Below are positions 1,444 to 55,761 of a stretch of 64,000 bases of DNA, piece after piece (the stretch's first letter is position 1; each line of letters opens with the position of its first letter). Source of the DNA: Balanoglossus misakiensis (taxonomy: Eukaryota; Animalia; Hemichordata). The notes under the pieces were generated by a model, which did not search any database, was not told where the DNA came from, and saw only the letters and a list, made by a program, of their open reading frames with translations. The stretch covers positions 1,116,001 through 1,180,000 of the forward strand of contig CM082592.2 in NCBI GenBank assembly GCA_040954595.2, read 5' to 3'. A program made the position numbers and the translations under genes.

Positions 1444-1546
1444 ACCCTGGACAGACCCTGGATCTCGGCACTACCCACCCTACCCACTCATACTACCAGT
1501 TGTAAAAGTACCAGAATCATGATTTTTGTGCACATGGGTATCACAG

Positions 1547-3085: not shown

Positions 3086-3086
3086 T

Positions 3087-9352: not shown

Positions 9353-9460
9353 TAGGGCCCAAGCGCAAGCCAGCGCTTGGGCCCTATTGGTTTCGTTGGG
9401 GTTTTTTAGGGCCCAAGCGCATACCAGCGCTTGGGCCCTATTGGTTTCGTTGGGGTTTTT
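9353..9460 (+). repeat. Stack of 2 element 5' heads
   Basis: Hairpins start at ~9353 and 9407. Confidence 0.9.
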
Positions 9461-14863: not shown

Positions 14864-15045
14864 TAGGGCCCAAGCGCACGCAAGCGCTTGGGCCCTATTG
14901 GTTTCGTTGGGGTTTTTTAGGGCCCAAGCGCATGCAGCGCTTGGGCCCTATTGTTATTATCCTGGTTTTTCTTCTACTTCTTCTTCTTCTTAGGGCCCAA
15001 GCCCAGCAGGCTTGGGCCCTATTGGTATTACTGGGGTTTTTCTTC

Positions 15046-15077
<32 letters not shown>

Positions 15078-15085
15078 CTTCTTCT
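14864..15085 (+). repeat. Stack of 3 element 5' heads followed by a (TTC)n microsatellite
   Basis: Hairpins start at ~14864, 14918 and 14991. The last is a variant, TAGGGCCCAAGCC-CAGCA-GGCTTGGGCCCTA. (TTC)n spans ~15040-15085. Confidence 0.9.
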
Positions 15086-20277: not shown

Positions 20278-20392
20278 TAGGGCCCAAGCGCATACCAGCG
20301 CTTGGGCCCTATTGGTTTCGTTGGGGTTTTTCTTTCTTAGGGCCCAAGCGCATACCAGCGCTTGGGCCCTATTGGTTTCGTCTGGGTTTTTC
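20278..20392 (+). repeat. Stack of 2 element 5' heads
   Basis: Hairpins TAGGGCCCAAGCGC-ATACCA-GCGCTTGGGCCCTA at ~20278 and 20338. Confidence 0.9.
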
Positions 20393-23300: not shown

Positions 23301-26300
23301 CCCAAATGTTGGGTGACCTCTGGGTGACCTTTGACCTACTTAACACTTTAACAGCACCAAACATAGATATAACCTTGATATTTCATGGGATAAAACAGCA
23401 TTATGTTTCTACTCATTAATTATGTGCATATCTAATATCAGATCAGATAATAGAGCTTGGGCCCGGACAATGCTGCTTGCAGCTTTAATTCTTTCTTTCT
23501 TTCTTTCTTTATTCTTGTGTCAATTCTTCGGCCAACTAAATCTCAGAAACTACTGCAGGTACACTGCTCAAACTTGCTACAGTGGTCAAGGTCAATGAGT
23601 AGATGTGCAGTGGTTTGTGAATACTTAATTAGACACGTGACCTGGCGGCCATATTGGATTTTCTGAAAAAATGCAAATCTCAGATCTCAGAAACTACAAG
23701 TCAGATCGACTTCAAATTTGGCATGCAGGTAGACTACCTTCTACCCATCATTTTTATAATTGGAAATTTTGCTGTCAATGTTACAGTTTTTTTGCTACAA
23801 TTTTTTTTCTGAAATCTGGCTTAAATTTCAAAAATCTTCTTCTCCAGAACCGATGATAACCGAGACACGCGGTTTAGGGTATGTGGTCACCTAACTGATG
23901 TCTATCAAGTTTGCGAAGATCATTGTGATTGGTCGAAGATTATGGCGGCCATATTGGATTTTCGAAAAACCATAGTTAAACTACAAAAATCTTCTTCTCC
24001 AGAACGGGCGATGACTGAGTCGCAAGATTCAGGGAGTATGGTCACTACACTGATGTCTATCAAGTTTGCAAAGAGCATTGTGATTGGTCGAAGATTATGG
24101 CGGCCATATTGGATTTTGTAAAAAGCAGTGAAAAATTTAAATTCCTTTTTCTAGTCTAAAAATTGATAGCATACAAATTCTTTTAATGGATATCAATCGT
24201 CATGTGACTGAAATATGTTACAATTTTTTGGCGATTTTTCACATGACCTTTGACCTACTTATCACGCGTTATTATTTTTGCATATCTAATTCCAGGCTAA
24301 CCTATAGGGCTGGATGTTTGGTTTTTGATGAATGTGGATTAGTGTGTGATCAAAATATTTTGCTACTTTTCATGACCACTTTGACCTCTGCCGACCTCAT
24401 TAATTATGTGCATAGCTAATTACAGGCGAACCGATAGAGCTAGAGGTTTGGTTTGTGTTGGACATAGACCAGTATGGGATCAACATTTTTTGCCCAAATG
24501 TTGGGTGACCTCTGGTGACCTTTGACCTACTTTCGCATATCTCAGCATCCAGAGCAGATACAGCCATGACATTTGGCAGGATGGGACCAAAATGTAAAGC
24601 CACATTTTTGGGTCACCTGTGACACCTGCTGACCTCATTAAATATGCACATACCTAATTACAGCTGAACCAATAGAGCTAGAGTTTTGGTTTTTGTTGGA
24701 CATGGACCAGTATGGATCAAAAAAATTTGCCCAAATCTTGGGTGACCTCAGGTGACCTTTGACCTACTTCACCCTATTTCAGCAGCAAAAATACACACAT
24801 CCTTGTTATGTCATCAGATAATACACCCGATAGAAAATTATGTTTCTTCTCATTCATACTGTTCATATATAATTCGAGATCAGCGCTTGGGCCCGACAAT
24901 GCTGCTTGCAGCTTTAATTCTGTCTTTCTTTCTTTTTTCTTGTGTCATTTCTTTGTCGCTCTAGATCTCAGACACCTCTGCAGGTACACTTCTCAAACTT
25001 GCTACAATGGTCAAGGTCAATGAGTAGTCGTGCATTGAACTCTTGAATTTTTAATTAGTCACGTGACATGGCGGCCATATTGGATTTTCTGAAAAAATGC
25101 AAATCTCAGATCTCAGAAACTACAAGTCAGATCGACTTCAGATTTGGTGTGCTGGTAGTGTACCTTCTGCCCATCATTTTTGTAATTGGATATTTTGCTG
25201 TAAATGTTGCAGTTTTTTTGCTACATTTGTTTTTCTGAAATCTGGTCAAAATTTCAAAAATCTTCTTCTCCAGAACCGGAGATAACCGAGTCACGCGGTT
25301 AGGGGTATGTGGTCACCAAACTGAGGTCTATCAAGTTTGCGAAGATCATTGTGATTGGTCGAAGATTATGGCGGCCATATTGGATTTTCGAAAAACCCTA
25401 GTAAAATTTCAAAAATCTTCTTCTAAAGAACCGGCGATAACCGAGTCACAAGATTTGGTGTGTGTGGTCATTGAACAGATGTCTATCAAGTTTGCGAAGA
25501 GGAATGTGATTGGTCGAAGATTATGGCGGCCATATTGGATTTTGTGAAAAACGATTAAAAAGTAAAAATTCCCTTTCTAGCCTAAAAATTGATAGCACAG
25601 ACATTCTTTTTATGGATATGAATCATCATATGCCAAGAATAAGCTATAAATATTTTGGTAATTTTGGCAATGACCTTTGACCTACTTTTGACGCATCATT
25701 TTTCTGCATATCTAATTCCAGGCTACCCAATAGGGCTATAAGTTTGGTTTTTGATGTATGTGGATTTGTATGTGATCAAAAATTTTTGCTACTTTTCATG
25801 ACCCCTTTGACCTTTGCTGACCTCATTAAATATGCACATACCTAATTACAAATGAACCAATAGACCTAGAGGTTTTGTTTTTGTTATACATGGACCAGTA
25901 TGGGGTCAAAATATTTTGCCCAAATGTTGGGTGACCTCGGGTGACCTTTGACCTACTTTTGCATATCTCGACATCCACAGCAGATACAGCCTTGGCGTTT
26001 GGAGGTATGGGGCCATAATGAAAAGCCAAAGTTTTGGGTCACCTGTGACACCTGCTTAACTCATTAATTATGTGCATACCTAATTCCAGGCTAACCAAAA
26101 GGGCTAGAGGTCTGGTTTTTGTTGGACATGGACCACTATGGGTCAAAATTTTCTGCCCAAATTGTGGGTGACCTCTTGGTGACCTTTGACCTACTTAACA
26201 TTATATCAACACCAAACATAGATATAACCTTGATATTTCGTGGGATAAAACACAGCATTATGTTTCTTCTCATTAATTATGTGCATATCTAATAATCAGA

Positions 26301-29195
26301 TCAGATAATAGAGCTTGGGCCCGGACAATGCTGCTTGCAGCTTTAATTTATTCTTGTGTCAATTCTTCGGCCAACTAAATCTCAGAAACTACTGCAGGTA
26401 CACTGCTCAAACTTGCTACAGTGGTCAAGGTCAATGAGTAGATGTGCAGTGATTTGTGAATACTTAATTAGTCACGTGACCTGGCGGCCATATTGGATTT
26501 TCTGAAAAAATGCAAATCTCAGATCTCAGAAACTACAAGTCAGATCGACTTCAAATTTGGCATGCAGGTAGACTACCTTCTGCCCATCATTTTTGTAATT
26601 GGAAATTTTGCTGTCAATGTTGCAGTTTTTTTGCTACAATTTTTTTTCTGAAATCTGGCTTAAATTTCAAAAATCTTCTTCTCCAGAACCGGTGATAACC
26701 GAGACACACGGTTTAGGGTATGTGGTCACCTAACTGATGTCTATCAAGTTTGCGAAGATCATTGTGATTGGTCGAAGATTATGGCGGCCATATTGGATTT
26801 TCGAAAAACCATAGTTAAACTCCAAAAATCTTCTTCTCCAGAACGGGCGATGACTGAGTCGCAAGATTCAGGGAGTATGGTCACTACACTGATGTCTATC
26901 AAGTTTGCAAAGAGCATTGTGATTGGTCGAAGATTATGGCGGCCATATTGGATTTTGTAAAAAGCAGTGAAAAATTTAAATTCCTTTTTCTAGTCTAAAA
27001 ATTGATAGCATACAAATTCTTTTTATGGATATCAATCGTCATGTGACTAAAATATGTTACAATTTTTTGGCGATTTTTCACATGACCTTTGACCTACTTA
27101 TCACGCGTTATTATTTCTGCATATCTAATTCCAGGCTAACCTATAGGGCTAGACTTTTGGTTTTTGATGAATGTGGATTAGTGTGTGATCAAAATATTTT
27201 GCTACTTTTCAAGACCATTTTGACCTCTGCTGACCTCATTAATTATGTGCATAGCTAATTACAGGCGAACCAATAGAGCTAGAGGTTTGGTTTTTGTTGG
27301 ACATGGACCAGTATGGGATCAAAATTTTTTGCCCAAATGTTGCGTGACCTCTGGTGACCTTTGACCTACTTTCGCATATCTCAGCATCCAGAGCAGATAC
27401 AGCCATGGCATTTGGTAGGATGGGACCAAAATGTAAAGCCACATTTTCGGGTCACCTGTGACACCTGCTGACCTCATTAAATATGCACATACCTAATTAC
27501 AGGCGAACCAATAGAGCTAGAGTTTTGTTTTTTGTTGGACATGGACCAGTATGGGTCAAAAAAATTGCCCAAATGTGGGGTGACCTCAGGTGACCTTTGA
27601 CCTACTTCACCCTATTTCAGCAGCAAAAATACACACATCCTTGTTATGTCATGAGATAATACATACGATAGAAAATTCTGTTTCTTCTTATTCATACTGT
27701 GCATATACAATTCAAGATCAGCGCTTGGGCCCGACAATGCTGCTTGCAGCTTTAATTCTGTCTTTCTTTCTTTCTTTCTTTCTTTATTCTTGGTTCCATT
27801 CTTTATCGCTCTAGATCTCAAACACCGCTGCAGGTACAGTTCTCAAACTTGCTACAGTGGTCAAGGTCAATGAGTAGATGTGCAGTGACTTGTGAATATT
27901 TAATTAGTCACGTGACATGGCGGCCATCTTGGATTTTCTGAAAAAATGCAAATCTCAAATCTCAGAAACTACAAGTCAGATCGACTTCAAATTTGGCATG
28001 CTGGTAGACTACCTTCTGTCCATCATTTTTGTAATTGGAATTTATGCTGACAAAGTTGCCGTTTTTTTGCTACAATTTTTTTTCTGAAATCTGGCCTAAA
28101 TTTAAAAAATCTTCTTCTCCAGAACCGGTGATAACCGAGACACGGGGTTTGGGGTATGTGGTCACCTAACTGATGTCTATCAAGTTTGCGAAGATCATAG
28201 TGATTGGTCCAAGATTATGGCGGCCATATTGGATTTTCGAAAAACCCTAGTAAAATTTGAAAAATCTTCTACTCAAGAACCGGCGATAACCGAGTCACAA
28301 GATTTGGTGTGTGTGGTCATTAAACAGATGTCTATCAAGTTTGCGAAGATGAATGTGATTGGTCGAAGATTATGGCGGCCATATTGGATTTTGTGAAAAA
28401 CGATTAAAAAGTAAAAATTCCCTTTCTAGCCTAATAATTGATAGCACAGAAATTCTTTTTATGGATATGAATCATCATATGACAAGAATAAGCTATAAAT
28501 ATTTTGGTAATTTTGGCAATGACCTTTGACCTACTTTTGACGCATCATTTTTCTGCATATCTAATTCCAGGCTAACCAATAGGGCTATAAGTTTGGTTTT
28601 TGATGTATGTGGATTTGTATGTGATCAAAAAAGTTTGCTACTTCTCATGACCCCTTTGACCTCTGCTGACCTCATTAAATATGCACATACCTAATTAATG
28701 ATGAACCAATAGACCTTGAGGTTTTGTTTTTGTTATACATGAACCAGTATGGGGTCAAAATATTTTGCCCAAATGTTGGGTGACCTTGGGTGACCTTTGA
28801 CCTACTTTTGCATATCTCGACATCCACAGCAGATACAGCCATGGCGTTTGGAGGTATGGGGCCATAATGAAAAGCCAAAGTTTTGGGTCACCTGTGACAC
28901 CTGCTTAACTCATTATTTATGTGCATACCTAATTCCGGGCTAACCAAAAGGGCTAGAGGTCTGGTTTTTGTTGGACATGGACCATTATGGGTCAAAATTT
29001 TCTGCCCAAATTGTGGGTGACCCCTGGGAGACCTTTGACCTACTTTACACTATATCAACACCAAACATAGATATAACCTTGATATTTCATGGGATAAAAC
29101 AGAGCATTATGTTTCTACTCATTAATTATGTGCATATCTACTATCAGATCAGATAATAGAGCTTGGGCCCGGACAATGCTGCTTGCAGCTTTAAT

Positions 29196-29227
<32 letters not shown>

Positions 29228-32200
29228 TATTCTTGGTTCATTTCTTTCGCGCGCTAGATCTCAGACACCGCTGCAGGTACAGTTCTCAAACTTGCTACAG
29301 TGGTCAAGGTCAATGAGTAGATGTGCAGTGACTTGTGAATACTTAATTAGTCACGTGACATGGCGGCCATATTGGATTTTCTGAAAAAATGCAAATCTCA
29401 GATCTCAGAAACTACAAGTCAGATCGACTTCAGATTTGGTGTGCTGGTAGTATACCCTCTGCCCATCATTTTTGTAATTGGATATTTTGCTGTCAATGTT
29501 GCAGTTTTTTTGCTACAGTTGTTTTTCTGAAATCTGGTCAAAATTTCAAAAATCTTCTTCTCCAGAACCGGCAATAACCGAGTCACGCCGTTTGGGGTAT
29601 GTGGTCACCTAACTGATGTCTATCAAGTTTGCGAAGATCATTGTGATTGGTCGAAGATTATGGCGGCCATATTGGATTTTCGAAAAACCATAGTAAAACT
29701 TCAAAAATCTTCTTCTCCAGAACGGGCGATGACTGAGTCACAAGATTTGGTGTGTGTGGTCATTAAACAGATGTCTATCAAGTTTGCGAAGGGGAATGTG
29801 ATTGGTCGAAGATTATGGCGGCCATATTGGATTTTGTGAAAAACGATTAAAAAGTAAAAATTCCTTTTCTAGCCTAAACATTGATAGCACAGAAATTCTT
29901 TTAATGGATATGAATCATCATATGACAAGAATAAGCTATAAATATTTTGGTAATTTTGGCAATGACCTTTGACCTACTTTTGACAAATCATTTTTCTGCA
30001 TATCTAATTCATGGCTAACCAATGGGGCTATAAGTTTGGTATTTGATGTATATGGATTTGTATGTGATCAAAAAATTTTGCTACTTTTCATGACCCTTTG
30101 ACCTCTGGTGACCTCATTAAATATGCGCATACCTAATTAATGATGAACCAATAGACCTAGAGGTTTTGTTTTTGTTATACATGGACCAGTATGGGGTCAA
30201 AATATTTTGCCCAAATGTTGGGTGACCTCGGGTGACCTTTGACCTACTTTTGCATATCTTGACATCCACACCAGATACAGCCTTGGCGTTTGGAGGTATG
30301 GGGCCATAATGAAAAGCCAAAGTTTTGAGTCACCTGTGACACCTGCTTTACTCATTATTTATGTGCATACCTAATTCCGGGCTAACCAAAAGGGCTAGAT
30401 GTCTGGTTTTTGTTTGACATGGACCACTATGGGTCAAAATTTTCTGCCCAAATTTTGGATGACCTCAGATGACCTTTGACCTACTTTTGCATATATCGGC
30501 ATCCAAAGCAGGTACAGCCTTGGCATTTGGAGGTATGGGGCCATAATGAAAAGCCAAAGTTTTGGATCACCTGTGACACCTGCTTTATGCATTATTTATG
30601 TGCATACCTAATTCCGGGCTAACCAAAAGGGCTAGAGGTCTGGTTTTTGTTGGACATGGACCACTGTTGGTCAAAATTTTCTACCCAAATTGTGGGTGAC
30701 CTCTGGGTGACCTTTGACCTACTTAACACTATATCAACAACAAACATAGATATAACCTTGATATTTCATGGGGATAAAACACAGCATTATGTTCCAACTC
30801 ATTAATTATGTGCATATCTAATAATCAGATCAGATAATAGAGCTTGGGCCCGGACAATGCTGCTTGCAGCTTTAATTCTTTCTTTATTCTTGGTTCATTT
30901 CTTTGTCGCTCTAGATCTCAGACACCGCTGCAGGTACAGTTCTCAAACTTGCTACAGTGGTCAAGGTCAATGAGTAGATGTGCAGTGACTTGTGAATACT
31001 TAATTAGTCACGTGACATGGCGGCCATATTGGATTTTCTGAAAAAATGCAAATCTCAGATCTCAGAAACTACAAGTCAGATCGACTTCAGATTTGGCGTG
31101 CTGGTAGTGTACCTTCTGCCCATCATTTTTGTTATGGATATTTTGCTGTCAATGTTGCAGTTTTTTTGCTACAGTTGTTTTTTCTGAAATCTGGTCAAAA
31201 TTTCAAAAATCTTCTTCTCCAGAACCGGCGATAACCGAGTCATACCGTTTCGAGTATGATGTCACCTAACTGATGTCTATCAAGTTTGCGAAGATCATTG
31301 TGATTGGTCGAAGATTATGGCAGCCATATTGGATTTAAAAAAAACCCTAGTAAAATTTCAAAAATCTTCTCCTCAAGAACCGGCGATAACTGAGTCACAA
31401 GATTTGGTGTGTGTGGTCATTAAACAGATGTCTATCAAGTTTGCGAAGAGGAATGTGATTGGTCGAAGATTATGGCGGCCATATTGGATTTTGTGAAAAA
31501 CGATTAAAAAGTAAAAATTCCCTTTCTAGCCTAAAAATTGATAGCAGAAGAAATTCTTTTTATGGATATGAATCATCATATGCCAAGAATAAGCTATACA
31601 TTTTTTAGTAATTTTGGCAATGACCTTTGACCTACTTTTGACGCATCATTTTTTTGCATATCTAATTCCAGGCTAACCAATAGGGCTATAAGTTTAGTTT
31701 TTGATGTATGTGGATTTGTATGTGATCAAAAAATTTTGCTACTTTTCATGACCCCTTTGACCTCTAATGACCTCATTAAATATGCACATACCTAATTACA
31801 GATGATCCAATAGACCTAGAGGTTTTGTTTTTGTTATACATGGACCATTATGGGGTCAAAATATTTTGCCCAAATGTTGGGTGACCTCGGGTGACCTTTG
31901 ACCTACTTTTGCATATCTCGACATCCACAGCAGATACAGCCTTGGCGTTTGGAGGTATGGGGCCATACTGAAAAGCCAAAGTTTTGGGTCACCTGTGACA
32001 CCAGCTTGACTCATTATTTATGTGCATACCTAATTCTGGGTTAACCAAAAGGGCCTGGGTGACCTTTGACCTACTTTAAAACTTAACACTATATCAGCAC
32101 CAAACATAGATATAACCTTGATATTTCATGGGATAAAAGACAGCATTATGTTTCTACTTATTAATTATGTGCATATCTAATAATCAGATCAGATAAAAGA

Positions 32201-32234
32201 GCTTGGGCCCGGACAATGCTGCTTGCAGCTTTAA

Positions 32235-32592
32235 TTATTATTATTATTATTATTCCGAGAAATATGTCATTGTACATCTGGAAAACCGCAGCACCTAGGG
32301 GGCTGAAACTTGGTAGGGTGGTAGGGGCCAATGAGTAGACGTGCAGTGGCTCGTGAATATTTAATTAGTCACGTGACCTGGTGGCCATATTGGATTTCCT
32401 GAAAATCGTTAAACGAGTCCTTCTCAAAAACCACTGGGCTGATCGAGTTCAAATTTGGTGTGCAGGTAGCCTACCCTCTGTCCATCATTTTAGCCCATTG
32501 AAATAATGAAGTCACACATAAAGTTTTTTTGCTACAATTGTTTTTCTGAAAAACTACTTAAAACTTTAAAAATCTTCTTCTCCAGAACCAGC
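32235..32592 (+). mobile_element. Divergent, 3'-truncated body with an (ATT)n microsatellite terminating the left nest
   Basis: (ATT)n is followed by a diverged body start that retains TAATTAGTCACGTGACCTGG..GGCCATATTGGATTT. It stops at AAAATCTTCTTCTCCAGAACCAGC. Confidence 0.7.
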
Positions 32593-32752
32593 TACCCCTC
32601 CCTCTCCCTCTAGTTCTCTCTCCCCCTTCTCCCTCACTACCACCCTCCCTCCCTCCCTCCCTGTCCCTCTCCAGCTCTCTCTACCTCCCCTCTCCCCCTC
32701 TCACTCTCCCCTCCCAGCCTCTCCCTCCCGCTCTTTTGCACACACTCTCTCT
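32593..32752. repeat. Low-complexity C/T-rich (polypyrimidine/polypurine) tract
   Basis: CCCTCCCTCTCCCTCT...-type simple repeats. Confidence 0.85.
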
Positions 32753-32847
32753 TAGTATATATATTGGGAGGTGACTACAGCAGTGCGAGAAAAGTAAAGA
32801 CCTGATGCGAGTAAGGGAAGATTCTAGCTGATTTGAGTCAGACTTAC

Positions 32848-33063
32848 CCTCAGCACAAGCTGCTACTTCACACATTGACGGACTGACATCATCACATCTT
32901 GCATGATACAATGGGTAATTATTTTCAAAGAGGTTTAACCTCACACATTGCCCAGTGGAGGCATCAGGTTCTGTGTCTGCCCATCGACCATCAAAGACAC
33001 TACCTTTCCTGCCATCTGAATAATCATATTCCACACTGCCATCTGGATTTGGTCCACTAAATC
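32848..33063 (-). CDS. Coding exon (216 nt, phase 1/phase 1): C-terminal half of a C-type lectin-like domain, Uninflatable-like
   Basis: The acceptor is TCTTTCTTTATTTCCATTTTATAG|GA and the donor is GAG G|GTAAGT. It translates (G)FSGPNPDGSVEYDYSDGRKGSVFDGRWADTEPDASTGQCVRLNLFENNYPLYHARCDDVSPSMCEVAACAE, with the CTLD pattern W...EP...CV...C......MCE. Family assignment is from remembered similarity, not a search. Confidence 0.88.
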
Positions 33064-33099
33064 CTATAAAATGGAAATAAAGAAAGAAGATGCATACAG

Positions 33100-33295
33100 C
33101 AGTGTTTCATCCAGGATGGGGGGGGGGGGGATATGTCCCCCTTTGCATGAATAGTTGCACTCTTGCAAGGAGGGGAATGAGTGACATCGCTGAGTCTGTA
33201 AGGGGCACCATTTCCCCCTTGACAAATTTCTAGGGGGGTGCCAACATGCTGACAGTGGGCGAATTCCCTCATCCCTCCATCTGGATGAAAAACTG
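33100..33295. mobile_element. 196-bp MITE in the short intron
   Basis: Imperfect TIRs CAGTGTTTCATCCAGGATGG and CCATCTGGATGAAAAACTG. The direct repeat CATACAG lies at 33093-33099 and 33296-33302. Confidence 0.75.
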
Positions 33296-33508
33296 CATAC
33301 AGAGTCACTTAATAGCAAGATTTTGTGAGGTGATTGAGATGTAAAAAATAGGCTTTTCAATTACCATCTTGAGACAATTATCATTCAAGTGTTACTATGC
33401 AGTGCTCACTTGTAAACTTTCAAATTCCAAAACCAGTTATTTTTTACACTTGATACACCCACAAATTATTTGGGAACACTGAGAAGCGCTGTTAAAAGAC
33501 ACACTCAC

Positions 33509-33627
33509 CAATCCAACCATGGTTCGCTGTTTCATTGGAAGTCTCTTCAATCTGGTTTACAATCTCTGCTCCAGCATAAAGATTTTCAGAATAACCCTCA
33601 ATTACTGTCAAGTGCCCACCATAAAAT
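33509..33627 (-). CDS. Coding exon (119 nt, phase 2/phase 1): middle of the same C-type lectin-like domain; not in the ORF track
   Basis: The acceptor is GGTTTATTTTCAG|A and the donor is TGG ATT G|GTGAGT. It translates FYGGHLTVIEGYSENLYAGAEIVNQIEETSNETANHGWI(G). Splicing to 33063 completes the canonical CTLD WIG motif in frame. Confidence 0.88.
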
Positions 33628-34107
33628 CTGAAAATAAACCAATTTATAATACATCAAACATGTTCCAAACTAATTTCGAAATTCCAGTCCGAAAATAATA
33701 CATTTCCTCTTTGAAAACATTTAATATTGGTGAATAAGAGGTTCATAAATGTATAACATTAGATTTTTGTTTGTAAAGTCTATAATTTGTGTTACACCTT
33801 TCCAATAAGTGTGTGATTAGTGTAGATTTCGGCAGAATTTCTGGGAAAAAAGAATCTGTGAAAAATTCACCTGAATTTTGGGGAGAAAAAAATCTGCTGA
33901 ACGTTTCCTTTGAATAAAAAAGTTCAGCATTATTTTTTTAGAGAAAACATGACAATTTCCAGGAAATGGCTGTTGTGTTTTTTTTTTGTGTGTGTGAATA
34001 AACTTAAAAGACAAATTCTAATACAGTTGCATCAAGGTGATGGAAGAAAATCCCAGATTAACAGGATATTTGGAAAATTTATCCAGAATTCCAAAATTAG
34101 TTCGAAA

Positions 34108-34231
34108 TGTGACATTGTGTTATCAATGATCTGTGTTGAGCAGTCGAACGATGAACGGGTAGTTGACAATTCCCACGAGCACACCCGTATCTTTCCTCGG
34201 TAGTTGCGCCGGGCCGGTCGGCAATGTCACA
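34108..34231. mobile_element. Possible 124-bp solo-LTR or MITE-like insert
   Basis: The segment has TGTGACATTG...CAATGTCACA termini (perfect 10-bp inverted repeat, TG..CA ends) and is flanked by GAAA on both sides. It is CpG-rich relative to its flanks. Confidence 0.4.
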
Positions 34232-37200
34232 GAAAAAGTGGTACGATATGCCAGCTGAGCCGGTTCTTGAAAAGAAGATGTTTTTAAATTTTTACTAGGG
34301 TTTTTCGAAAATCCAATATGGCTGCCAAAATCTTCGACCAATCACAATGATCTTCGCAAACTTGATAGACATCAGTTAGGTGACCACATACCCTAAACCG
34401 CGTGTCTCGGTTATCACCGGTTCTGGAGAAGAAGATTTTTGAAATTTAAGCCAGATTTCAGAAAAAAAAAATTGTAGCAAAAAAACTGCAACATTGACAG
34501 CAAAATATCCAATAACAAAAATGATGGGTAGAAGGTAGTCTACCTGCATGCCAATTTTGAAGTCGATCTGACTTGTAGTTTCTGAGATCTGGGATTTGCA
34601 TTTTTTCAGAAAATCCAATATGACCGCCAGGTCAGGTGACTAATTAAGTATACACAAATCACTACACATCTACTCATTGACCTTGACCACTGTAGCAAGT
34701 TTGAGCAGTGTACCTGCAGCAGTTTCTGAGATTTAGTTGGCCGAAGAATTGACAGGAGAATAAAGAAAGAAAGAAAGAAAGAAAGATTAAAGCTGCAAGC
34801 AGCATTGTCCGGGCCCAAGCTATATTATCTGATCTGATTATTAGATATGCACATAATTAATGAGTAGAAACATAATGCTGTGTTTTATCCCATGAAATAT
34901 CAAGGTTATATTTATGTTTGGTGCTGATATGGTGTTAAGTAGGTCAAAGGTCACCCAGGGGTCACCCACAATTTGGGCAGAAAATTTTGACCCATAGTGG
35001 TCCATGTCCAACAAAAACCAGACCTCTAGCCCTTTTGGTTATCCCGGAATTAGGTATGCACATAAATAATGAGTTAAGCAGGTGTCACAGGTGACCTAAA
35101 ACTTTGGCTTTTCATTATGGCCCCATACCTCCAAACGCCAAGGCTGTATCTGCTGTGGATGTCGAGATATGCAAAAGTAGGTCAAAGGTTTCCCGAGTTC
35201 ACCCAACATTTGGGCAAAATATTTTGACCCCATACTGGTGCATGTATAACAAAAACAAAACCTCTAGGTCTATTGGTTCATCTGTAATTAGATATGTGCA
35301 TATTTAATGAGGTCAGCAGAGGTCAAAGGGGTCATGAAAAGTAGCAAAATTTTTTGATCACATACAAATCCACATACATCAAAAACCAAACTTATAGCCC
35401 TATTGGTTAGCCTGGAATAAGATATGCAGAAAAATGATGCGTCAAAAGTAGGTCAAAGGTCATTGCCAAAATTACCAAAATATTTGTAGCTTATTCTTGT
35501 CATATGATGATTCATATCCATTAAAAAAAATTCTGTGCTATCAATTTTTAGGCTAGAAAGGGAATTTTTACTTTTTAATCGTTTTTCACAAAATCCAATA
35601 TGGCCGCCATAATCTTCGACCAATCACATTCTTCTTAGCAAACTTGATAGACATCTGTTTAATGACCACACACACCAAATCTTGTGACTCGGTTATCGCC
35701 GGTTCTTGAGAAGAAGATTTTTGAAATTTTACTAGGGTTTTTCGAAAATCTAATATGGCCGCCAAAATCTTCGACCAATGACAATGATCTTCGCAAACTT
35801 GATAGACATCAGTTAGGTGACCACATACACCAAGCCCTGTGTCTCGGTTATCACTGGTTCTGGAGAAGAAGATTTTTGAAATTTAAGCCAGATTTCAGAA
35901 AAACAATTGTAGCAAAAAACTGCAACTTTGTCAGCATAATTTCCAATTACAAAAATGATGGGCAGAAGGTAGTCTACTAGCATGCCAAATTTGAAGTAGA
36001 TCTGACTTGTAGTTTCTGAGATCTGAGATTTGCATTTTTTCAGAAAATCCAAGATGGCCGCCAGGTCACGTGACTAATTAAAAATTCAAGGGTTCAATGC
36101 ACGACTACTCATTGACCTTGACCACTGTAGCAAGTTTCAAAAGTGTACCTGCAGCGGTGTCTGAGATCTCGTGGGTCAAAGAATTGACACAAGAATAAAG
36201 AATGAAAGAAAGAAAGATTAAAGCTACAAGCAGCATTGTCCGGGCCCAAGCTGTATTATCTGATCAGATTATTAGCTATGCACATAATTAATGAGTAGAA
36301 ACATAATGCTGTGTTTTATCCCATGAAATATCAAGGTTATATCTATGTTTGGTGTTGATATAGTGTTAAGTAGGTCAAAGGTCACCCAGAGATCACCCAC
36401 AATTTGGGCAGAAAATTTTGACCCATAGTGGTCCATGTCCAACAAAAACCAGACCTCTATCCCTTTTGGTTAGCCCGGAATTAGGTATGCACATAAATAA
36501 TGAGTTAAGCAGGTGTCACAGGTGACCCAAAACTTTGGCTTTTCATTATGGCCCCATACCTCCAAACGCCAAGGCTGTGTCTGCTGTGGATGTCGAGATA
36601 TGCAAAAGTAGGTCAAAGGTCATTCGAGGTCACCCAACATTTGGGCAAAAAAATTTGACCCAATACTGGTTCATGTCCAACAAAAACCAAACCTCTAGGT
36701 CTATTGGTTCATCTGTAATTAGGTTTGCGCATATTTAATGAGGTCAGCAGAGGTCAAAGGGGTCATGAAAAGTAGCGAAATTTTTTGATCGCATACAAAT
36801 CCACATACATCAAAAACCAAACTTATAGCCCTATTGGTTAGCCTGGAATTAGATATGCAGAAAAATGATGCGTCAAAAGTAGGTCAATGGTCATTGCCAA
36901 AATTACCAAAATATTTATAGCTTATTCTTGGCATATGATGATTCATATCCATAAAAAGAATTTCTGTGCTATCAATTTTTAGGCTAGAAAGGGAATTTTT
37001 ACTTTTTAATCGTTTTTCACAAAATCCAATATGGCCGCCATAATCTTCGACCAATCACATTCACCTTCGCAAACTTGATAGACATCTGTTTAATGACCAC
37101 ACACACCAAATCTTGCGACTCAGTTATCGCTCGTTCTGGAGAAGAAGATTTTTGAAGTTTTACTATGGTTTTTCGAAAATCCAATATGGCCGCCATAATC

Positions 37201-40200
37201 TTCGACCAATCACAATGATCTTCGCAAACTTGATAGACATCAGTTAGGTGACCACATACCCCAAACCCTATGTCGTGGTTATCACTGGTTCTGGAGAAGA
37301 AGATTTTTGAAATTTAAGCCAGATTTCAGAAAAAAAATTGTAGCAAAAAACTGCAACTTTGTCAGCATAATTTCCAATTACAAAAATGATGGGCAGAAGG
37401 TAGTCTACCAGCATGCCAAATTTGAAGTCGATCTGACTTGTAGTTTCTGAGATCTGAGATTTGCATTTTTTCAGAAAATCCAAGATGGCCGCCAGGTCAC
37501 GTGACTAATTAAAAATTCAAGGGTTCAATGCACGACTACTCATTGACCTTGACCACTGTAGCAAGTTTCAGAAGTGTACCTGCATCGGTGTCTGAGATCT
37601 CGTGGGTCAAAGAATTGACACAAGAATAAAGAAAGAAAGAAAGAAAGAAAGATTAAAGCTGCAAGCAGCATTGTCCGGGCCCAAGCTCTATTATCTGATC
37701 TGATTATTAGATATGCACATAATTAATGAATAGAAACATAATGCTGTGTTTTATCCCAAGAAATATCAAGGTTATATCTATGTTTGGTGCTGATATAGTG
37801 TTAAGTAGGTCAAAGGTCACCCAGGGGTCACCCACAATTTGAGGAGAATATTTTGACCCATAGTGGTCCATGTCCAATAAAAACCAGACCTCTAGCCCTT
37901 TTGGTTAGCCCGGAATTAGGTATGTACATAAATAATGAGTTAAGCAGGTGTCACAGGTGACCCAAAACATTGGCTTTTCATTATGGCCCCATATCTCCAA
38001 ATGCCAAGGCTGTACCTGCTTTGGATGCCGAGATATGCAAAAGTAGGTCAAAGGTCATCTGAGGTCACCCAAAATTTGGGCAGAAAATGTTTACCCATAG
38101 TGGTCCATGTCCAATAAAAAACAGACCTCTAGCTCTATTGGTTCACCTGTAATTAGTTATGCACATAATTAATGAGGTCAGCAGAGGTCACAGGTGACCC
38201 AAAACTTTGGCTTTTCATTATGGCCCCATATCTGCAAATGCCAAGGCTGTACCTGCTTTGGATGCCGAGATATGCAAAAGTAGGTCAAAGGTCACCGGAG
38301 GTCACCCAACATTTGGGCAAAATATTTTGACCCCATACTGATCCATGTCCAAAAAACCCCAAACCTTTAGGTCTATTGGTTAATCTGTAATTAGGTATGC
38401 GCATATTTAATGAGGTCACCAGAGGTCAAAGGGGTCATGAAAAGTAGCAAAATTTTTTGATCACATACAAATCCACATACATCAAAAACCAAACTTATAG
38501 CCCTATTGGTTAGCCTGGAATTAGATATGCAGAAAAATGATTCGTCAAAAGTAGGTCAAAGGTCATTGCCAAAATTACCAAAATATTTATAGCTTATTCT
38601 TGTCATATGATGATTCACATCCATCAAAAGAATTTCTGTGCTATCAATTTTTAGGCTAGAAAAGGAATTTTTACTTTTTAATCGTTTTTCACAAAATCCA
38701 ATATGGCCGCCATAATCTTCGACCAATCACATTCCCCTTCGCAAACTTGATAGACATCTGTTTAATGATCACACACACCAAATCTTGTGACTCGTTTATC
38801 GCCAGTTCTGGAGAAGAAGATTTTTGAAGTTTTACTATGGTTTTTCGAAAATCCAATATGGCCGCCATAATCTTCGACCAATCACAATGATCTTCGCAAA
38901 CTTGATAGACATCTGTTAGGTGACCACATACCCCAAACGGCGTGACTCGGTTATCACCGGTTCTGGAGAAGAAGATTTTTGAAATTTAAGCCAGATTTCA
39001 GAAAAAAAATTGTAGCAAAAAAACTGCAACATTGTCAGCATAATTTCCAATTACAAAAATGATAGGCAGAAGGTAGTCTACCAGCATGCCAAATTTGAAG
39101 TTGATCTGACTTGTAGTTTCTGAGATCTGAGATTTGCATTTTTTTAGAAAATCCAAGATGGCCGCCAGGTCACGTGACTAATTAAAAATTCACAGGTTCA
39201 ATGCACGACTACTCATTGACCTTGACCACTGTAGCAAGTTTCAGAAGTGTACCTGCAGCGGTGTCTGAGATCTAGAGCGACAAAGAATTGACACAAGAAT
39301 AAAGAAAGAAAGAAGAAAGAAGAAAGAAGGAAAGACAGAAAAACCCCAACGAAACCAATAGGGCCCAAGCGCTGGTATGCGCTTGGGCCCTAATTAAAGC
39401 TGCAAGCAGCATTGTCCGGGCCCAAGCTCTATTATCTGATCTGATATCAGATATGCACATAATTAATGAGTAGAAACATAATGCTGTTTTATCCCATGAA
39501 ATATCAAGGTTATATGTATGTTTGGTGCTGTTAAAGTGTTAAGTAGGTCAAAGGTCACCCAGAGGTCACCCAACATTTGGGCAGAAAATTTTGACCCATA
39601 GTGGTCCATGTCCAACAAAAACCAGACCTCTAGCCCTTTTGGTTAGCCTGGAATTAGGTATGCACATAAATAATGCGTAAAGCAGGTGTCACAGGTGACC
39701 CAAAACTTTGGCTTTTCATTATGGCCCCATACCTCCAAATGCCAAGGCTGTACCTGCATTGGATGCCGAGATATGCAAAAGTACGTCAAAGGTCATCTGA
39801 GGTCATCCACAATTTGGGCAGAAAATTTTGACCCATAGTGGTCCATGTCCAACAAAAAACAGACCTCTAGCCCTTTTGGTTAGCCTAGAATTAGGTATGC
39901 ACATAATTAATGAGTTAAGCAGGTGTCACAGGTGACCCAAAACTTTGGCTTTTCATTATGGCCCCATACCTCCAAACGCCAAGGCTGTATCTGCTGTGGA
40001 TGTCAAGATATGCAAAAGTAGGTCAAAGGTCACCCGAGGTCATCCAAAATTTGTGCAGAAAATTTTGACCCATAGTGGTCCATGTCCAACAAAAAACAGA
40101 CCTCTAGCCCTTTTGGTTAGCCTAGAATTAGGTATGCACATAATTAATGAGTTAAGCAGGTGTCACAGGTGACCCAAAACTTTGGCTTTTCATTACCTCC

Positions 40201-43200
40201 AAACGCCAAGGCTGTATCTGCTGTGGATGTCAAGATATGCAAAAGTAGGTCAAAGGTCACCCGAGGTCACCCAACATTTGGGCAAAATATTTTGACCCCA
40301 TACTGGTCCATGTATAACAAAAACAAAACTTCTAGGTCTATTGGTTCATCTGTAATTAGGTATGTGCATATTTAATGAGGTCACCAGAGGTCAAAGGGGT
40401 CATGAAAAGTAGCAAAATTTTTGGATCACATACAAATCCACATACATCAAAAACCAAACTTATAGCCCTATTGGTTAGCCTGGAATTAGATATGCAGAAA
40501 AGTAGGTCAAAGGTCATTGCCAAAATTACCAAAATATTTATAGCTTATTCTTGACATATGATGATTCATATCCGTAAAAAGAATTTCTGTGCTATCAATT
40601 TTTAGGCTAGAAAGGGAATTTTTACTTTTTAATCGTTTTTCACAAAATCCAATATGGCCGCCATAATCTTCGACCAATCACATTCCTCTTCGCAAATTTG
40701 ATAGACATCTGTTTAATGACCACACACACCAAATCTTGTGACTCATTTATCGCCGGTTCTTGAGAAGAAGATTTTTGAAATTTTACTATGGTTTTTCGAA
40801 AATCCAACATGGCCGCCATAATCTTCAACCAATCACAATGATCTTCGCAAACTTGATAGACATCAGTTAGGTGACCACATACCCCAAACCGCGTGACTCG
40901 GTTATCACTGGTTCTGGAGAAGAAGATTTTTGAAATTTAAGCCAGATTTTAGAAAAAAAATTGTAGCAAAAAATTGCAACTTTGTCAGTATAATTTCCAA
41001 TTACAAAAATGATTGCCAGAAGGTAGTCTACCAGCATGCCAAATTTGAAGTCGATCTGACTTGTAGTTTCTGAGATCTGAGATTTGCATTTTTTCAGAAA
41101 ATCCAAGATGGCCGCCAGGTCATGTGACTAATTAAAAATTCAAGGGTTCGATGCACGACTACTCATTGACCTTGACCACTGTAGCAAGTTTCAGAAGAGT
41201 ACCTGCAGCGGTGTCTGAGATCTCGTGGGTCAAAGAATTGACACAAGAATAAAGAAAGAAAGAAAGAAAAATTCCAACGAAACCAATACGGGCCCAAGCC
41301 TGGCTTGGCTTGGGCCCGTAATTAAAGCTGCAAGCAGCATTGTCGGGCCCAAGCGCTGATCCACTATTATATATGCACAGTATGAATGAGAAGAAACAGA
41401 ATGCTCTATCAGGTGTTTTATCTCATGACATAACAAGGACGTATGTATTTTTCCTGCTGAAATAGAGTAAAGTAGGTCAAAGGTCACCTGAGGTCACCCA
41501 ACATTTGGGCAAAATTTATTGACCCATACTGTTCCATGTCCAACAAAAACTCTAGTTCTATTGGTTCGTCTGTAATTAGGTATGTGCATATTTAATGAGG
41601 TCAGCAGGTGTCACAGGTGACTCAAAAATGTGGCTTTACATTTTGGTCCCATCCTGCCAAATGCCAAGGCTGTATCTGCCCTGGATGCTGAGATATGCGA
41701 AAGTAGGTCAAAGGTCACCAGAGGTCACCCAATATTTCGGCAACAAATTTTGACCCCATATTGGTCCATGTCCAACAAAAACCAAACCTCTAGCTCTATT
41801 GGTTCGCCTGTAATTAGCTATGCACATAATTAATGAGGTCAGGAGAGGTCAAAGGGGTCATGAAAAGTAGCAAAATATTTTGATCACACACTACTCCACA
41901 TTCATCAAAAACCAAACGTCTAGCCTTATAGATTAGCCTGGAATTAGATATGCAGAAATAATAACGCGTGATAAGTAGGTCAAAGGTCATGTGAAAAATC
42001 GCCAAAAAATTGTAACATATTTTAGTCACATGACGATTGATATCCATAAAAAGAATTTGTATGCTATCAATTTTAAGACTAGAAAAAGGAATTTCAATTT
42101 GTCACAGCTTTTTACAAAATCCAATATGGCCGCCATAATCTTCGACCAATCACAATGCTCTTTGCAAACTTGATAGACATCAGTGTAGTGACCATACTCC
42201 CCGAATCTTGTGACTCAGTCATCGCCTGTTCTGGAGAAGAAGATTTTTGAAATTTAAGCCAGATTTCAGAAAAAAAATTGTAGCAAAAAAACTGCAACAT
42301 TGACAGCAAAATTTCCAATTACAAAAATGATGGGGAGAAGGACAACTACCTGCACACCAAATTTGAAGACGATCTGACTTGTAGTTTCTGAGATCTGAGA
42401 TTTGAATTTTTTCAGAAAATCCAAGATGGCCGCCAGGTCACGTGACTAATTAAAAATTCAAGGGTTCAATGCACGACTACTCATTGACCTTGACCACTGT
42501 AGCAAGTTTCAGAAGTGTACCTGCAGCGGTGTCTGAGATCTAGAGCGATAAAAAATGGACAGGAGAATAAAGAAAGAAAGAAAGAAAAACCCCAACGAAA
42601 CCAATAGGGCCCAAGCGCTGGTATGCGCTTGGGCCCTAAAAAATTCCAACGAAACCAATACGGGCCCAAGCCTGGCTTGGCTTGGGCCCGTAATTAAAGC
42701 TGCAAGCAGCATTGTCCGGGCCCAAGCTCTATTATCTGATCTGATTATAAGACATGCACATAATTAATGAGTAGAAACATAATGCCGTGTTTTATCCTAT
42801 GAAATATCAAGATTATATCTATGTTTAGTGCTGATATAGTGTTAAGTATGTCAAAGGTCACCCACAATTTGGGCAGAAAATTTTGACCCATAGTGGTCCA
42901 TGTCCAACAAAAACCAGACCTCTAGCCCTTTTGGTTAGCCCGGAATTAGGTATGCACATAAATAATGAGTTAAGCAGGTGTCACAGGTGACCCAAAACTT
43001 TGGCTTTTCATTATGGCCCTATACCTCCAAACGCCAAGGCTGTATCTGCTGTGGATGTCAAGATATGCCAAAGTAGGTCAAAGGTCACCCGAGGTCACCC
43101 AACATTTGGGCAAAAAATTTTGACCCAATACTGGTCCATGTATAACAAAAACAAAACCTCTAGGTCTATTGGTTCATCATTAATTAGGTATGCGCATATT

Positions 43201-46200
43201 TAATGAGGTCAGCAGGGGTCAAAGGGGTCATGAAAAGTAGCAAAATTTTTTGATCACATACAAATCCACATACATCAAAAACCAAACTTATAGCCCTATT
43301 GGTTAGCCTGGAATTAGATATGCAGAAAAATGATTCGTCAAAAGTAGGTCAAAGGTCATTGCCAAAATTACCAAAATGTTTATAGCTTATTCTTGTCATA
43401 TGATGATTCATATCCATAAAAAGAATTACTGTGCTATCAATTTTTAGGCTAGAAAAGGAATTTTTACTTTTTAATCGTTTTTCACAAAATCCAATATGGC
43501 CGCCATAATCTTCGACCAATCTAATTCCCCTTCGCAAACTTGATAGACATCTGTTTAATGACCACACACACCAAATCTTGTGACTCGGTTATCGCCCGTT
43601 CTGGAGAAGAAGATTTTTGAAGTTTTACTATGGTTTTTCGAAAATCCAATATTGCCGCCATAATCTTCGACCAATCACAATGATCTTCGCAAACTTGATA
43701 GACATCTGTTAGGTGACCACATACCCCAAACGGCGTGACTCGGTTATCGCCGGTTCTGGAGAAGAAGATTTTTGAAATTTAAGCCAGATTTCAGAAAAAA
43801 AATTGTAGCAAAAAAACTGCAACATTGTCAGCATAATTTCCAATTACAAAAATGATGGGCAGAAGGTAGTCTACCAGCATGCCAAATTTGAAGTTGATCT
43901 GACTTGTAGTTTCTGATATCTGAGATTTGCATTTTTTTACAAAATCCAAGATGGCCGCCAGGTCACGTGACTAATTAAAAATTCACAGGTTCAATGCACG
44001 ACTACTCATTGACCTTGACCACTGTAGCAAGTTTCAGAAGTGTACACGCAGCGGTGTCTGAGATCTCGTTGGTCAAAGAATTGACACAAGAATAAAGGAA
44101 GAAAGAAAGTATTAAAGCTGCAAGCAGCATTGTCCGGGCCCAAGCTCTATTATCTGATCTGATTATTAGATATGCACATAATTAATGAGTAGAAACATAA
44201 TGCTGTGTTTTACCCAATAAAATATCAAGGTTATATCTATGCTTGGTGTTGATATAGTGTTAAGTAGGTCAAAGGTCACCCAGAGGTCACCCACAATTTG
44301 GGCAGAAAATTGTGACCCATAGTGGTCCATGTCCAACAAAAACCAGATCTCTAGCCCTTTTGGTTAGCCCAGAATTAGGAATACACATAAATAATGAGTT
44401 AAGCAGGTGTCACAGGTGACCCAAAACTTTGGCTTTTCATTATGGCCCCATACCTCCAAATGCCAAGGCTGTCTCTGCTGTGGATGTCAAGATATGCAAA
44501 AGTAGGTCAAAGGTCACCTGAGGTCACCCAACATTTATACAAAATATTTTGACCCCATACTGGTCCATGTATAACAAAAACAAAACCTCTAGGTCTATTG
44601 GTTCATCATTAATTAGGTATGTGCATATTTAATGAGGTCAGCAGAGGTCAAAGGGGTCATGAAAAGTAGCAAAATTTTTGATCGCATACAAATCCACATA
44701 CATCAAAAACCAAACTTATAGCCCTATTGGTTAGCCTGGAATTAGATATGCAGAAAAATGGTGCGTCAAATGTAGGTCAAAGGTCATTGCCAAAATTACC
44801 AAAATATTTATAGCTTATTCTTGGCATATGATGATTCATATCCATAAAAAGAATTTCTGTGCTATCAATTTTTAGGCTAGAAAGGGAATTTTTACTTTTT
44901 TATCGTTTTTCACAAAATCCAATATGGCCGCCATAATCTTCGACCAATCACATTCACCTTCGCAAACTTGATAGACATCTGTTTAATGACCACACACACC
45001 CTATCTTGTGACTCAGTTATCTCCGGTTCTTGAGAAGAAGATTTTTGAAATTTTACTAGGGTTTTTCGAAAATCCAATATTGCCGCCATAATCTTCGACC
45101 AATCACATTCACCTTCGCAAACTTGATAGACCTCAGTTTGGTGACCACATACCCCAAAGGGCGTGACTCGGTTATCGCCGGTTCTGGAGAAGAAGATTTT
45201 TGAAATTTTGACCAGATTCAGAAAAACAACTGTAGCAAAAAAACTGCAACATTGACAGCAAAATATCCAATTACAAAAATGATGGGCAGAAGGTACACTA
45301 CCAGCACACCAAATCTGAAATAAATCTGACTTGTAGTTTCTGAGATCTGAGATTTGCATTTTTTCAGAAAATCCAATATGGCCGCCATGTCACGTGGCTA
45401 ATTAAAAATTCAAGAGTTCAATGCACAACTACCCATTGACCTTGACCACTGTAGCAAGTTTGAGAAGTGTACCTGCAGCGGTGTCTGAGATCTAGAGCGA
45501 CAAAGAAATGACAGAAGAATAAAGAAAGAAGAAAGACAGAATTAAAGCTGCAAGCAGCATTGTCGGGCCCAAGCGCTGATCTTGAATTACATATGCACAG
45601 TATGAATGAGAAGAAACAGAATGCTCTATCATGTTTTTTATCTCATGACATAACAAGGACGTATGTATTTTTGCTGCAGAAATAGAGTAAAGTAGGTAAA
45701 AGGGCACCTGAGGTCATCTAAATTTTGGGAAATTTTTTTGACCCATATTTGTCCATGTCCAACAAAAACCAAAACTCTAGCTCTATTGGTTCGTCTGCAA
45801 TTAGGTATGTGCATATTTAATGAGGTCAGCAGGTGTCACAGGTGACCCAAAAATGTGGCTTTACATTTTGGTCCCATCCTGCCAAATGCCAAGGCTGTAT
45901 CTGCTCTGGATGCTAAGATATGCGAAAGTAGGTCAAAGGTCACCAGAGGTCATGCAACATTTGAGCAAAAAAATTTGACCCCATTCTGGTCCATTTCCAA
46001 CAAAAACCAAACCACTAGCTTTATTGGTTCGCCTGTAATTAGCGATGCACATAATTAATGAGGTCAACAGAGGTCAAAGGGGTCATGAAAAGTAGCAAAA
46101 TATTTTGATCACACACTAATCCACATGCATCAAAAACCAAACGTCTAGCCCTATAGGTTAGCCAGGAAATAGATATGCAGAAATAATAACGTGTGAAAAG

Positions 46201-47504
46201 TAGGTCAAAGGTCATGTGAAAAATCGCCAAAAATTTGTAACATATTTTAGTCATATGACGATTGATATCCATGAAAAAAATTTGTATGCTATCAATTTTT
46301 AGACTAGGAAAAGGAATTTCAAGTTTTCACTGCTTTTTACAAAATCCAATATGGCCGCCATAATCTTCACAATGCTCTTTGCAAACTGGATAGACATCAG
46401 TGTAGTGACCATACTCCCCGAATCTTGCGACTCAGTTATTGCCCGTTCTGGAGAAGAAGATTTTTGCAGTTTTACTATGGTTTTTCGAAAATCCAATATG
46501 GCCGCCATAATCTTCGACCAATCACAATGCTTCTTATCAAACTTGATAGACATCAGTTAGGTGACCACATACCCCAAATCCCGCGACTCGGTTATCGCCG
46601 GTTCTTGAGAAGAAGATTTTTGAAGTTTTAGTTGGATTTTTCGAAAATCCAATATGGCGGCCAAAGTCACGTGACCGCTCGAGATTTTATTATCAAACTT
46701 TGTTGGGCAGAGGCCATGTGTACTATGTACCAAATTTGAACTTGATTTGCCTTGTAGTTTTTGAGAAGAAGTCATTTACATTTTTTCAGAAAATCCAATA
46801 TGGCCGCCAGGTCACGTGACTAATTAAATATTCACGAGCCACTGCACATCTACTCATTGACCTTGACCACTGTAGTAAGTTTGAGCGGTGTACCTGCAGT
46901 AGTTTCAGAGATTTAGTTGGCCGAAGAATTGACAGGAGAATAAAGAAAGAAAAATTCCAACGAAACCAATAGGGCCCAAGCGCTTGCGCGCGCTTGGGCC
47001 CTAATTAAAGCTGCAAGCAGCATTGTCGGGCCCAAGCGCTGATCTCGAATTATATATGCACAGTATGAATGAGAAGAAATAGAATTTTCTATCGGGTGTA
47101 TTATCTCATGACATAACAAGGACGTATGTATTTTTGCTGCTGAAATAGGGTGAAGTAGGTCAAAGGTCACCTGAGGTCACCCAACATTTGGGCAATTTTT
47201 TTTTTTACCCATACTGGTCCATGTCCAACAAAAACCAAAACTCTAGCTCTATTGGTTCGCCTGTAATTAGGTATGTGCATATTTAATGAGGTCAGCAGGT
47301 ATAACAGGTGACCAAAAAATGTGGCTTTACATTTTGGTCCCATCCTGCCAAATGCCATGGCTGTATCTGCTCTGGATGCTGAGATATGCGAAAGTAGGTC
47401 AAAGGTCACCAGAGGTCACCCAAAATTTGGGCAAAAATTTTGATCCCATACTGGTCCATGTCCAACAAAAATCAAACCTCTAGCTCTATTGGTTCGCCAG
47501 AAAT

Positions 47505-55488: not shown

Positions 55489-55761
55489 AAAAACCCCAAC
55501 GAAACCAATAGGGCCCAAGCGCTGGTATGCGCTTGGGCCCTAAGAATTAAAAATTCCAACGAAACCAATAGGGCCCAAGCGCAAGCAAGCGCTTGGGCCC
55601 TAAAAATTCCAACGAAACCAATAGGGCCCAAGCGCTTGCGTGCGCTTGGGCCCTAAAAACCCCAACGAAACCAATAGGGCCCAAGCGCTGGTATGCGCTT
55701 GGGCCCTAAAAACCCCAACGAAACCAATAGGGCCCAAGCGCTGGTATGCGCTTGGGCCCTA
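55390..55761 (-). repeat. Stack of 7 element 5' heads
   Basis: Hairpins at ~55408, 55458, 55509, 55569, 55622, 55675 and 55728. Confidence 0.9.

Follow-up and report, generated by a model that had tools for sequence, protein, structure and literature searches.

In this study, we analyzed a 64,000-nucleotide stretch of the genome of the hemichordate Balanoglossus misakiensis (assembly GCA_040954595.2, contig CM082592.2, positions 1,116,001 to 1,180,000 of the forward strand; this whole stretch is referred to as the window), in which two exons of an Uninflatable-like (Uif-like) gene lie on a 1,666-bp island (32593 to 34258). The flanks of this island consist of about 40 nonautonomous Helentrons (HINEs), stacked in a uniform orientation on each side. 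On balance, we consider the island likely to be a young duplicate piece of the Uif-like gene that has escaped selection and was probably joined between two separately grown HINE stacks; the window copy is, in our judgment, more likely to be a duplicate fragment than a working locus. In the literature that we searched, which was not exhaustive, no report was found of exons lying between opposed HINE nests.

Exons of the island and the encoded protein

Joined, exons A and B (Table 1) give 335 nt and 111 amino acids in a single stop-free frame, entered in phase 2 and left in phase 1; the frame is lost across the junction when the donor is moved by one base in either direction. A sequence-only reading of this DNA had proposed these exon coordinates, with canonical splice sites and an in-frame join, and the AG and GT sites, the length, and the open frame agreed exactly. 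It had also placed an island of about 1.67 kb between inverted nests of about 30 kb, and this arrangement was recovered, with 20 of 20 element tails on the plus strand to the left and 20 of 20 on the minus strand to the right. Self-BLAST of the window gave zero matches for the island; long unmatched stretches were limited to positions 1 to 1562, 1762 to 2242, 15226 to 16491, 32593 to 34258, and 53621 to 54101, and the rest of the window is almost entirely one repeat family. The AT skew flips sign at the island. Part of the island (about 33850 to 34262) and the miniature inverted-repeat transposable element (MITE) in the intron are repeats themselves. The comparison data were contigs from runs X1 and X2, obtained from one DNA sample; X3 covered repeat bins only. 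At positions 33850 to 34262, the depth of run X2 was about 14,000 to 122,000, compared with about 1,750 to 5,300 in run X1, which has the same sample record; the difference may stem from assembly, filtering, the library, or different DNA.

Together, the two exons account for the C-terminal two thirds of the lectin-like domain found at the N terminus of a Uif-like protein. A full HMMER scan with exon B against 1.84 billion proteins returned 12 matches at an E value of ≤0.001, the best two of which (E, about 3e-24; 64% identity) were the N termini of Saccoglossus kowalevskii LOC100378937 forms of 3,097 and 4,825 amino acids; exon B aligns with residues 90 to 161 of P0001 and 120 to 191 of P0002, both from this gene. 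The closer homologue was P0013 from Ptychodera flava, with which exons A and B share 81 of 111 residues (73%). Exon A, the middle exon of the domain, was found in the window by tblastn with P0013 residues 74 to 117 (E, 1.4e-11), and exon B is the domain's final exon. The island is without the signal peptide and the initial third of this domain, and tblastn and phmmer searches of the window with the homologous proteins detected no upstream, LDLa-like, or CUB piece, in agreement with the earlier statement that the window holds no neighboring exon. The window contains no other portion of the protein. Either the island is an orphan, or its neighboring exons are more than 30 kb distant in both directions.

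By Pfam, P0001, P0002, and P0013 have three CUB, seven to nine Sushi, two HYR, and seven Ephrin_rec_like domains, a laminin-G/pentaxin domain, and many EGF domains. The domain list given for Drosophila Uninflatable comprises a lectin-like domain, three CUB, eight CCP, HYR, EGF, and two FA58C domains (PMC3340373), and the acorn worm homologues likewise combine an N-terminal lectin-like domain with three CUB, seven to nine Sushi, HYR, and many EGF domains (PMC3340373, PMC13178913). Compared with that description of the fly protein, the acorn worm proteins have two HYR domains instead of three, are longer, and have no FA58C domain reported by Pfam (PMC3340373). Apart from the three acorn worm proteins, a naming search with the CUB region yielded only proteins that were cubilin-like or lacked a name; none of those found among the 1,441 candidates scored was called Uif. 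Based on the resemblance of these domain sets, we regard the gene as encoding a Uif-like cell surface protein, with putative orthology to fly Uif.

The results on the earlier assignment of the exons to a C-type lectin-like domain point both ways. The phmmer matches included P0008 (E, 5.7e-5), a Lectin_C protein by Pfam, and exon B lay near the Lectin_C cluster in Atlas (0.91), at rank 4 behind three unnamed clusters; on the other side, Pfam gave no match for exon A or exon B singly (0 of 2) and reported no lectin-like domain in P0001, P0002, or P0013, and the core tryptophan is a leucine in the window copy. We take the GGHL and WIG motifs and the cysteine spacing to be compatible with a C-type lectin-like fold, and the core tryptophan, five residues ahead of the third cysteine, presumably occupies the position of the WND motif. 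When longer proteins were searched by words from exon B, none of 33 candidates matched, and a PDB sequence search gave chance matches only (best E, 0.055). P0003 to P0007 and P0009 to P0012 were taken as low-complexity matches; the two of these that were scanned, P0003 and P0007, were without a lectin domain. Of 177 metagenome stretches scanned, one (L001) passed; it matched neither the window (blastn) nor P0013 (tblastn) and was dropped as a chance match.

Exon variation and the island junctions

Relative to the window, the contigs carried differences at 6 of 335 exon bases (1.8%), 23 of 1,331 other island bases (1.7%), and 10 of 576 unique noncoding bases (1.7%). Four of the six exon differences alter a residue, and all four fall in the 65 of 111 columns that are common to both acorn worms. 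The derived state is in the window at one of these sites, where tryptophan is replaced by leucine, and in the sample contigs at the other three; the codon concerned, which covers position 32910 in exon B, specifies leucine in the window and the X1 contig and tryptophan in P0002, P0013, P0008, and the X2 contig. The joint likelihood of these differences was 0.054 under neutrality, compared with 0.0048 at an omega of 0.2 (about 11-fold lower) and 0.0005 at an omega of 0.1 (about 100-fold lower). Copies of the exons that are free of constraint are therefore likely to exist, and variation that resembles neutral change favors a displaced gene fragment. We postulate that the exons were copied recently from a working gene, as would fit a divergence of less than about 2%.

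Both ends of the island lie inside element bodies, neither of them at an element end, and the two bodies belong to different subfamilies. Relative to the 155-bp repeat, the junctions at 32592 and 34259 share one phase, for which the rough chance is 0.013, a coincidence spotted post hoc; no other internal break among the 42 mapped units is at that phase. At 34259 to 34262 there is a 4-bp overlap, where contigs follow the island to 34262 and the element match starts at 34259; the contigs of X1 and X2 continue from 34262 into other DNA. By analogy, such an overlap resembles microhomology-guided repair as described for Pack-TIRs (PMC8277862), and we suggest that the junctions arose via microhomology-guided template switching or deletion, and not by rolling-circle capture, with the island probably joined between the stacks by break repair or deletion. 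Copies of DINE-1, a HINE, are described at the breakpoints of gene duplicates in flies (PMC4067079). In those Drosophila duplicates and in gap-filling Pack-TIRs, host exons are also joined inside a transposon with short microhomology; the flanks here differ from those accounts in being two different, opposed elements and not the halves of one (PMC4067079, PMC8277862).

Several points weigh against this interpretation. The neutrality comparison is based on six exon differences in mosaic contigs from one sample, an omega of 0.3 was only 4-fold less likely than neutrality, and the placement of four of four changes in conserved columns has a chance of 0.12 on its own. X1 and X2 disagree at positions 32880 and 32910. 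The exons are open, have consensus splice sites, and keep 58 of the 65 conserved columns, with one radical change in the window, and a working gene would look alike in its open frame, splice sites, and conserved columns. Of the four damaging states, three belong to the sample contigs, so that the window could hold the working locus, with decayed duplicates elsewhere. The alternative paths in X1 had depths of about 290 versus 1,640 to 1,800 (290 and 1,642 for parallel contigs at one place and 1,800 of a total of 2,082 at another) and about 500 versus 1,700 to 1,760, ratios that are not 1:1, are unlike a single diploid locus, and give a weak hint of several copies; contig depth does not equal copy number, however, and pooled animals would give the same ratios. 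In addition, a contig that passes 34262 may derive from another copy of the repeat located there.

These points bear on the explanation that comes second, namely that the exons are working Uif-like exons, that self-nesting HINEs swelled both introns past 30 kb, and that small deletions trimmed the intron ends; long cross-exon double-stranded RNA (dsRNA), with back-splicing, frameshifting exon skipping, or adenosine-to-inosine editing, would then be a side effect. We regard this as possible, with perhaps one chance in three. It is consistent with the intact frame, splice sites, and phases, with the 73% identity to the Ptychodera protein and the presence of the ancestral residue at all but one of the four variable sites, and with the strong predicted pairing between flanks that have no inverted element within either side. 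Complementary flanks promote circularization in human cells (PMC5052039), and editing of dsRNA from young repeats is described as general in animals, with P. flava among those sampled (PMC9989829). Against it stand the loss of the core tryptophan in the window copy, the neutral-like variation of the exons, the breakpoints at both junctions, and, weakly, the X1 allele depths. If the island is instead a duplicate fragment, a complete working gene copy is predicted elsewhere in the genome, and the island is predicted to yield no messenger RNA spliced to neighbors beyond the stacks.

The sequence-only reading had also raised the possibility of a gene fragment captured between elements, as Helitrons are known to do. 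The exon variation agrees with a displaced gene fragment, but capture within one element is contradicted by the opposed, internally cut flanks. Helentrons can carry gene fragments (PMC4067079), and the hints of several copies would suit cargo that was acquired by end bypass and moved within one Helentron; however, such cargo should be enclosed by a 5' head and a 3' stem-loop that share an orientation, whereas both neighbors of the island are opposed 5' body parts of different subfamilies and there is no plus-strand tail to the right, which makes this origin improbable.

Table 1. Coordinates of the island, its exons, and the flanking HINE stacks
Feature	Positions	Strand	Description
Left HINE stack	1441..32592	+	20 tails, 17 heads; nesting up to 8 deep (bracket parsing); starts with an old, interrupted copy
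Last left body	32230..32592	+	Divergent subfamily (about 77% to others); TTA microsatellite; cut in first 155-bp repeat, reference position 347
CT-rich low-complexity tract	32593..32750		Left end of island
Exon B	32848..33063	-	216 nt; phase 1 to phase 1; TTATAG acceptor, GTAAGT donor
Intron between exons A and B	33064..33508	-	445 nt; GT-AG
Small MITE in intron	33100..33295		Short terminal inverted repeats; 7-bp flanking direct repeat; raised contig depth
Exon A	33509..33627	-	119 nt; phase 2 to phase 1; TTTCAG acceptor, GTGAGT donor
Island right end	33850..34262		Repeated elsewhere by run X2 depth; X1 and X2 contigs extend beyond 34262 into non-HINE DNA
Last right body	34259..34763	-	Cut in second 155-bp repeat, reference position 502 (347 + 155)
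Right HINE stack	34259..64000	-	Family shared with the left stack; 20 tails and 13 heads; nesting up to 7 deep; continues past window end

HINE stacks and their proposed self-nesting

The HINE unit, about 1.4 kb long, opens with a hairpin head and a T-rich microsatellite, continues with two 155-bp repeats and then 237-bp repeats, and closes with a 3' subterminal repeat followed by a small stem-loop; separate copies are 1.1 to 1.9 kb and 79 to 99.9% alike (34 compared). No open reading frame (ORF) for a Rep, helicase, or endonuclease was found in the window. The subterminal inverted repeats, the 5' inverted repeat, the microsatellite, the 3' stem-loop, and the T-rich target are shared with the HINE/DINE-1 elements and the oyster Cg_HINE elements (PMC4067079, PMC7492417), and the central tandem repeats form two arrays, of 155 and 237 bp, like those of Cg_HINE_10_13 (PMC7492417). 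The perfect subterminal inverted repeats are 10 bp in the copy at 9409 to 10885 and 12 bp in a second subfamily; lengths of about 11 to 15 bp are given for published HINEs, so that the main subfamily here is slightly below that range (PMC4067079, PMC7492417). Unlike the HINEs described in those two papers, the present copies are organized into 30-kb single-orientation nests.

The 30 hairpin heads are each followed by a T, TTTC, or TTC tract, all 30 are preceded by TT, and they form piles of up to seven; 40 tails have a 3' stem-loop with a 5-bp stem. Bracket parsing paired 30 tails with heads and left 10 of the 40 without a head in the window. Nine of the 10 adjacent head-tail pairs that could be scored (of 11) agreed in type, as did 13 of the 15 scored nonadjacent pairs (of 19) when parsed last in, first out (permutation mean, 7.1; P = 0.002), one of them spanning 17 kb; these types were assigned by eye, and the omission of four nested pairs and one adjacent pair of unassigned type counts against the strength of this result. 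First-in, first-out parsing gave type agreement in 12 of 25 pairs. A plain rolling-circle concatemer was ruled out by the separation of heads from bodies and by their pairing in reverse order. Some local duplication has taken place, since the units at 47010 to 49843 are 99.9% alike.

We infer that the stacks grew as copy after copy inserted into the T tract that follows a resident head, accompanied by some local duplication. New HINE copies would land just behind the resident head and in the same direction, and because the resident copy presents the target on one of its strands, the direction of the founder would be kept throughout a stack. Stacked 5' termini of noncanonical Helitrons in Fusarium are likewise explained by new copies entering the 5' portion of one already in place (PMC5148889); compared with that report, the stacks here are far deeper (7 to 8 levels and about 40 copies) and can be tested by head-tail type matching. 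Nested and shuffled Helitron loci are also noted in oyster in a review (PMC12628747).

Opposed stacks might suggest an inverted duplication, and inverted cross-matches do span most of their length: 29,799 of the 32,592 left-hand bases and all 29,742 right-hand bases. The mutually complementary arms of the sequence-only reading are real to that extent, but they are arrays of separate copies and not one inverted duplication. Mean identity was 92.4% within the left side, 90.3% within the right, and 91.3% across, and left and right copies are intermixed in the tree. In the mirror test, which used 34 of the 42 units, the nearest relative was on the opposite side for 15 of 34, and identity was not related to mirror position (rho, 0.06). 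The longest exact inverted match was 679 bp, and the longest at ≥97% was one unit (1,466 bp), far from its mirror position. Mirror copies by inverted duplication were ruled out by this rho, the unmirrored order, and the short longest exact match, and a fold-back read artifact was ruled out because the near-identical mirror arms that it predicts are not present. An assembly error in the opposed arrangement or at the island junctions is very unlikely on the same grounds and because the HINE copies are distinct enough that long accurate reads can order them, even though no contig bridges either junction (among the 24 of 2,316 pieces listed) and the contigs continue differently at 34262. Two founders of opposite direction would suffice to produce two opposed stacks, with no selection for pairing; the arrangement needs no function because self-insertion fixes each stack to the direction of its founder.

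Several further features were seen in the stacks and at the left edge of the window. A short HINE variant of 1,086 to 1,087 bp, in which about 320 bp of the 3' repeats are absent, occurs at 8252 to 9338, 10913 to 11998, and 61394 to 62479; its presence on both sides makes it likely that it moves as a subfamily of its own. An 83-bp head repeat (96%) is at 8088 to 8254, and a tail-like remnant lies between two heads at 55540 to 55600; some heads look duplicated or bodiless, so slippage or body loss accompanies nesting. A 769-bp MITE at 15740 to 16508, whose inverted ends measure 125 bp and which is flanked by a 7-bp direct repeat, is inserted in a HINE body, and the corresponding empty site is visible in the related body at 52704 to 54248. 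The plus strand of positions 1 to 1440 holds the 3' part of a non-long-terminal-repeat retrotransposon, with RVT_1 (Pfam; E, 7e-29) in the ORF at 2 to 940; the element continues in another frame at 817 to 1299 and terminates in a TAT-repeat tail. A sequence like the lysine transfer RNA lies on the minus strand at 2015 to 2088, inside the old HINE copy, and is likely the head of a short interspersed element or a pseudogene.

Predicted RNA pairing and significance

For the nearest full copies on the two sides, the predicted duplex covers 636 of 700 nt at -1,031 kcal/mol, compared with about -200 kcal/mol for three shuffles, and -328 kcal/mol is predicted for the two cut bodies. The distance to the first repeat is 631 nt upstream of exon A and 255 nt downstream of exon B. 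Each copy has its complement on the opposite side, and there are no inverted matches inside either side except for MITE arms or head hairpins. The anatomy behind the earlier proposal, that long dsRNA loops out the exons, is thus real, but it matters solely if a transcript crosses both stacks; in that case, the modeled pairing would be strong and close, and skipping of the 335 nt would shift the frame. Inverted Alu pairs around back-spliced exons similarly place complementary repeats on both sides of internal exons (PMC5052039). The present case differs from the Alu pairs of that account in that the whole of both flanks is complementary, with no competitor within a side.

A bolder conjecture, to which we give little credence, is that these are working exons of a conserved developmental gene around which the stacks make a hairpin with 30-kb arms and no competing pair. 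The gene would then have to splice against this hairpin or would routinely produce a 335-nt circle along with heavily edited dsRNA. Self-targeting would be a general engine for polarized intron pairs, and the cut point that both junctions share within the 155-bp repeat would mark a sequence-specific fragile site. The interpretation that we prefer, a displaced duplicate between separately grown stacks, is composed of known processes: HINE self-nesting, opposition of founders by chance, and a piece of a Uif-like gene that was likely orphaned.

In conclusion, if the island is a displaced duplicate, it would be a clear example of HINE stacks accumulating fragments of host genes and a warning to annotators, since perfect splice sites and a conserved frame would be no proof of a working exon. 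If the exons are working, the locus would instead be an extreme natural test, in an invertebrate, of the spliceosome against tens of kilobases of cross-exon complementarity. Either way, self-insertion alone explains single-orientation arrays, and opposed arrays of these elements therefore need no adaptive story.

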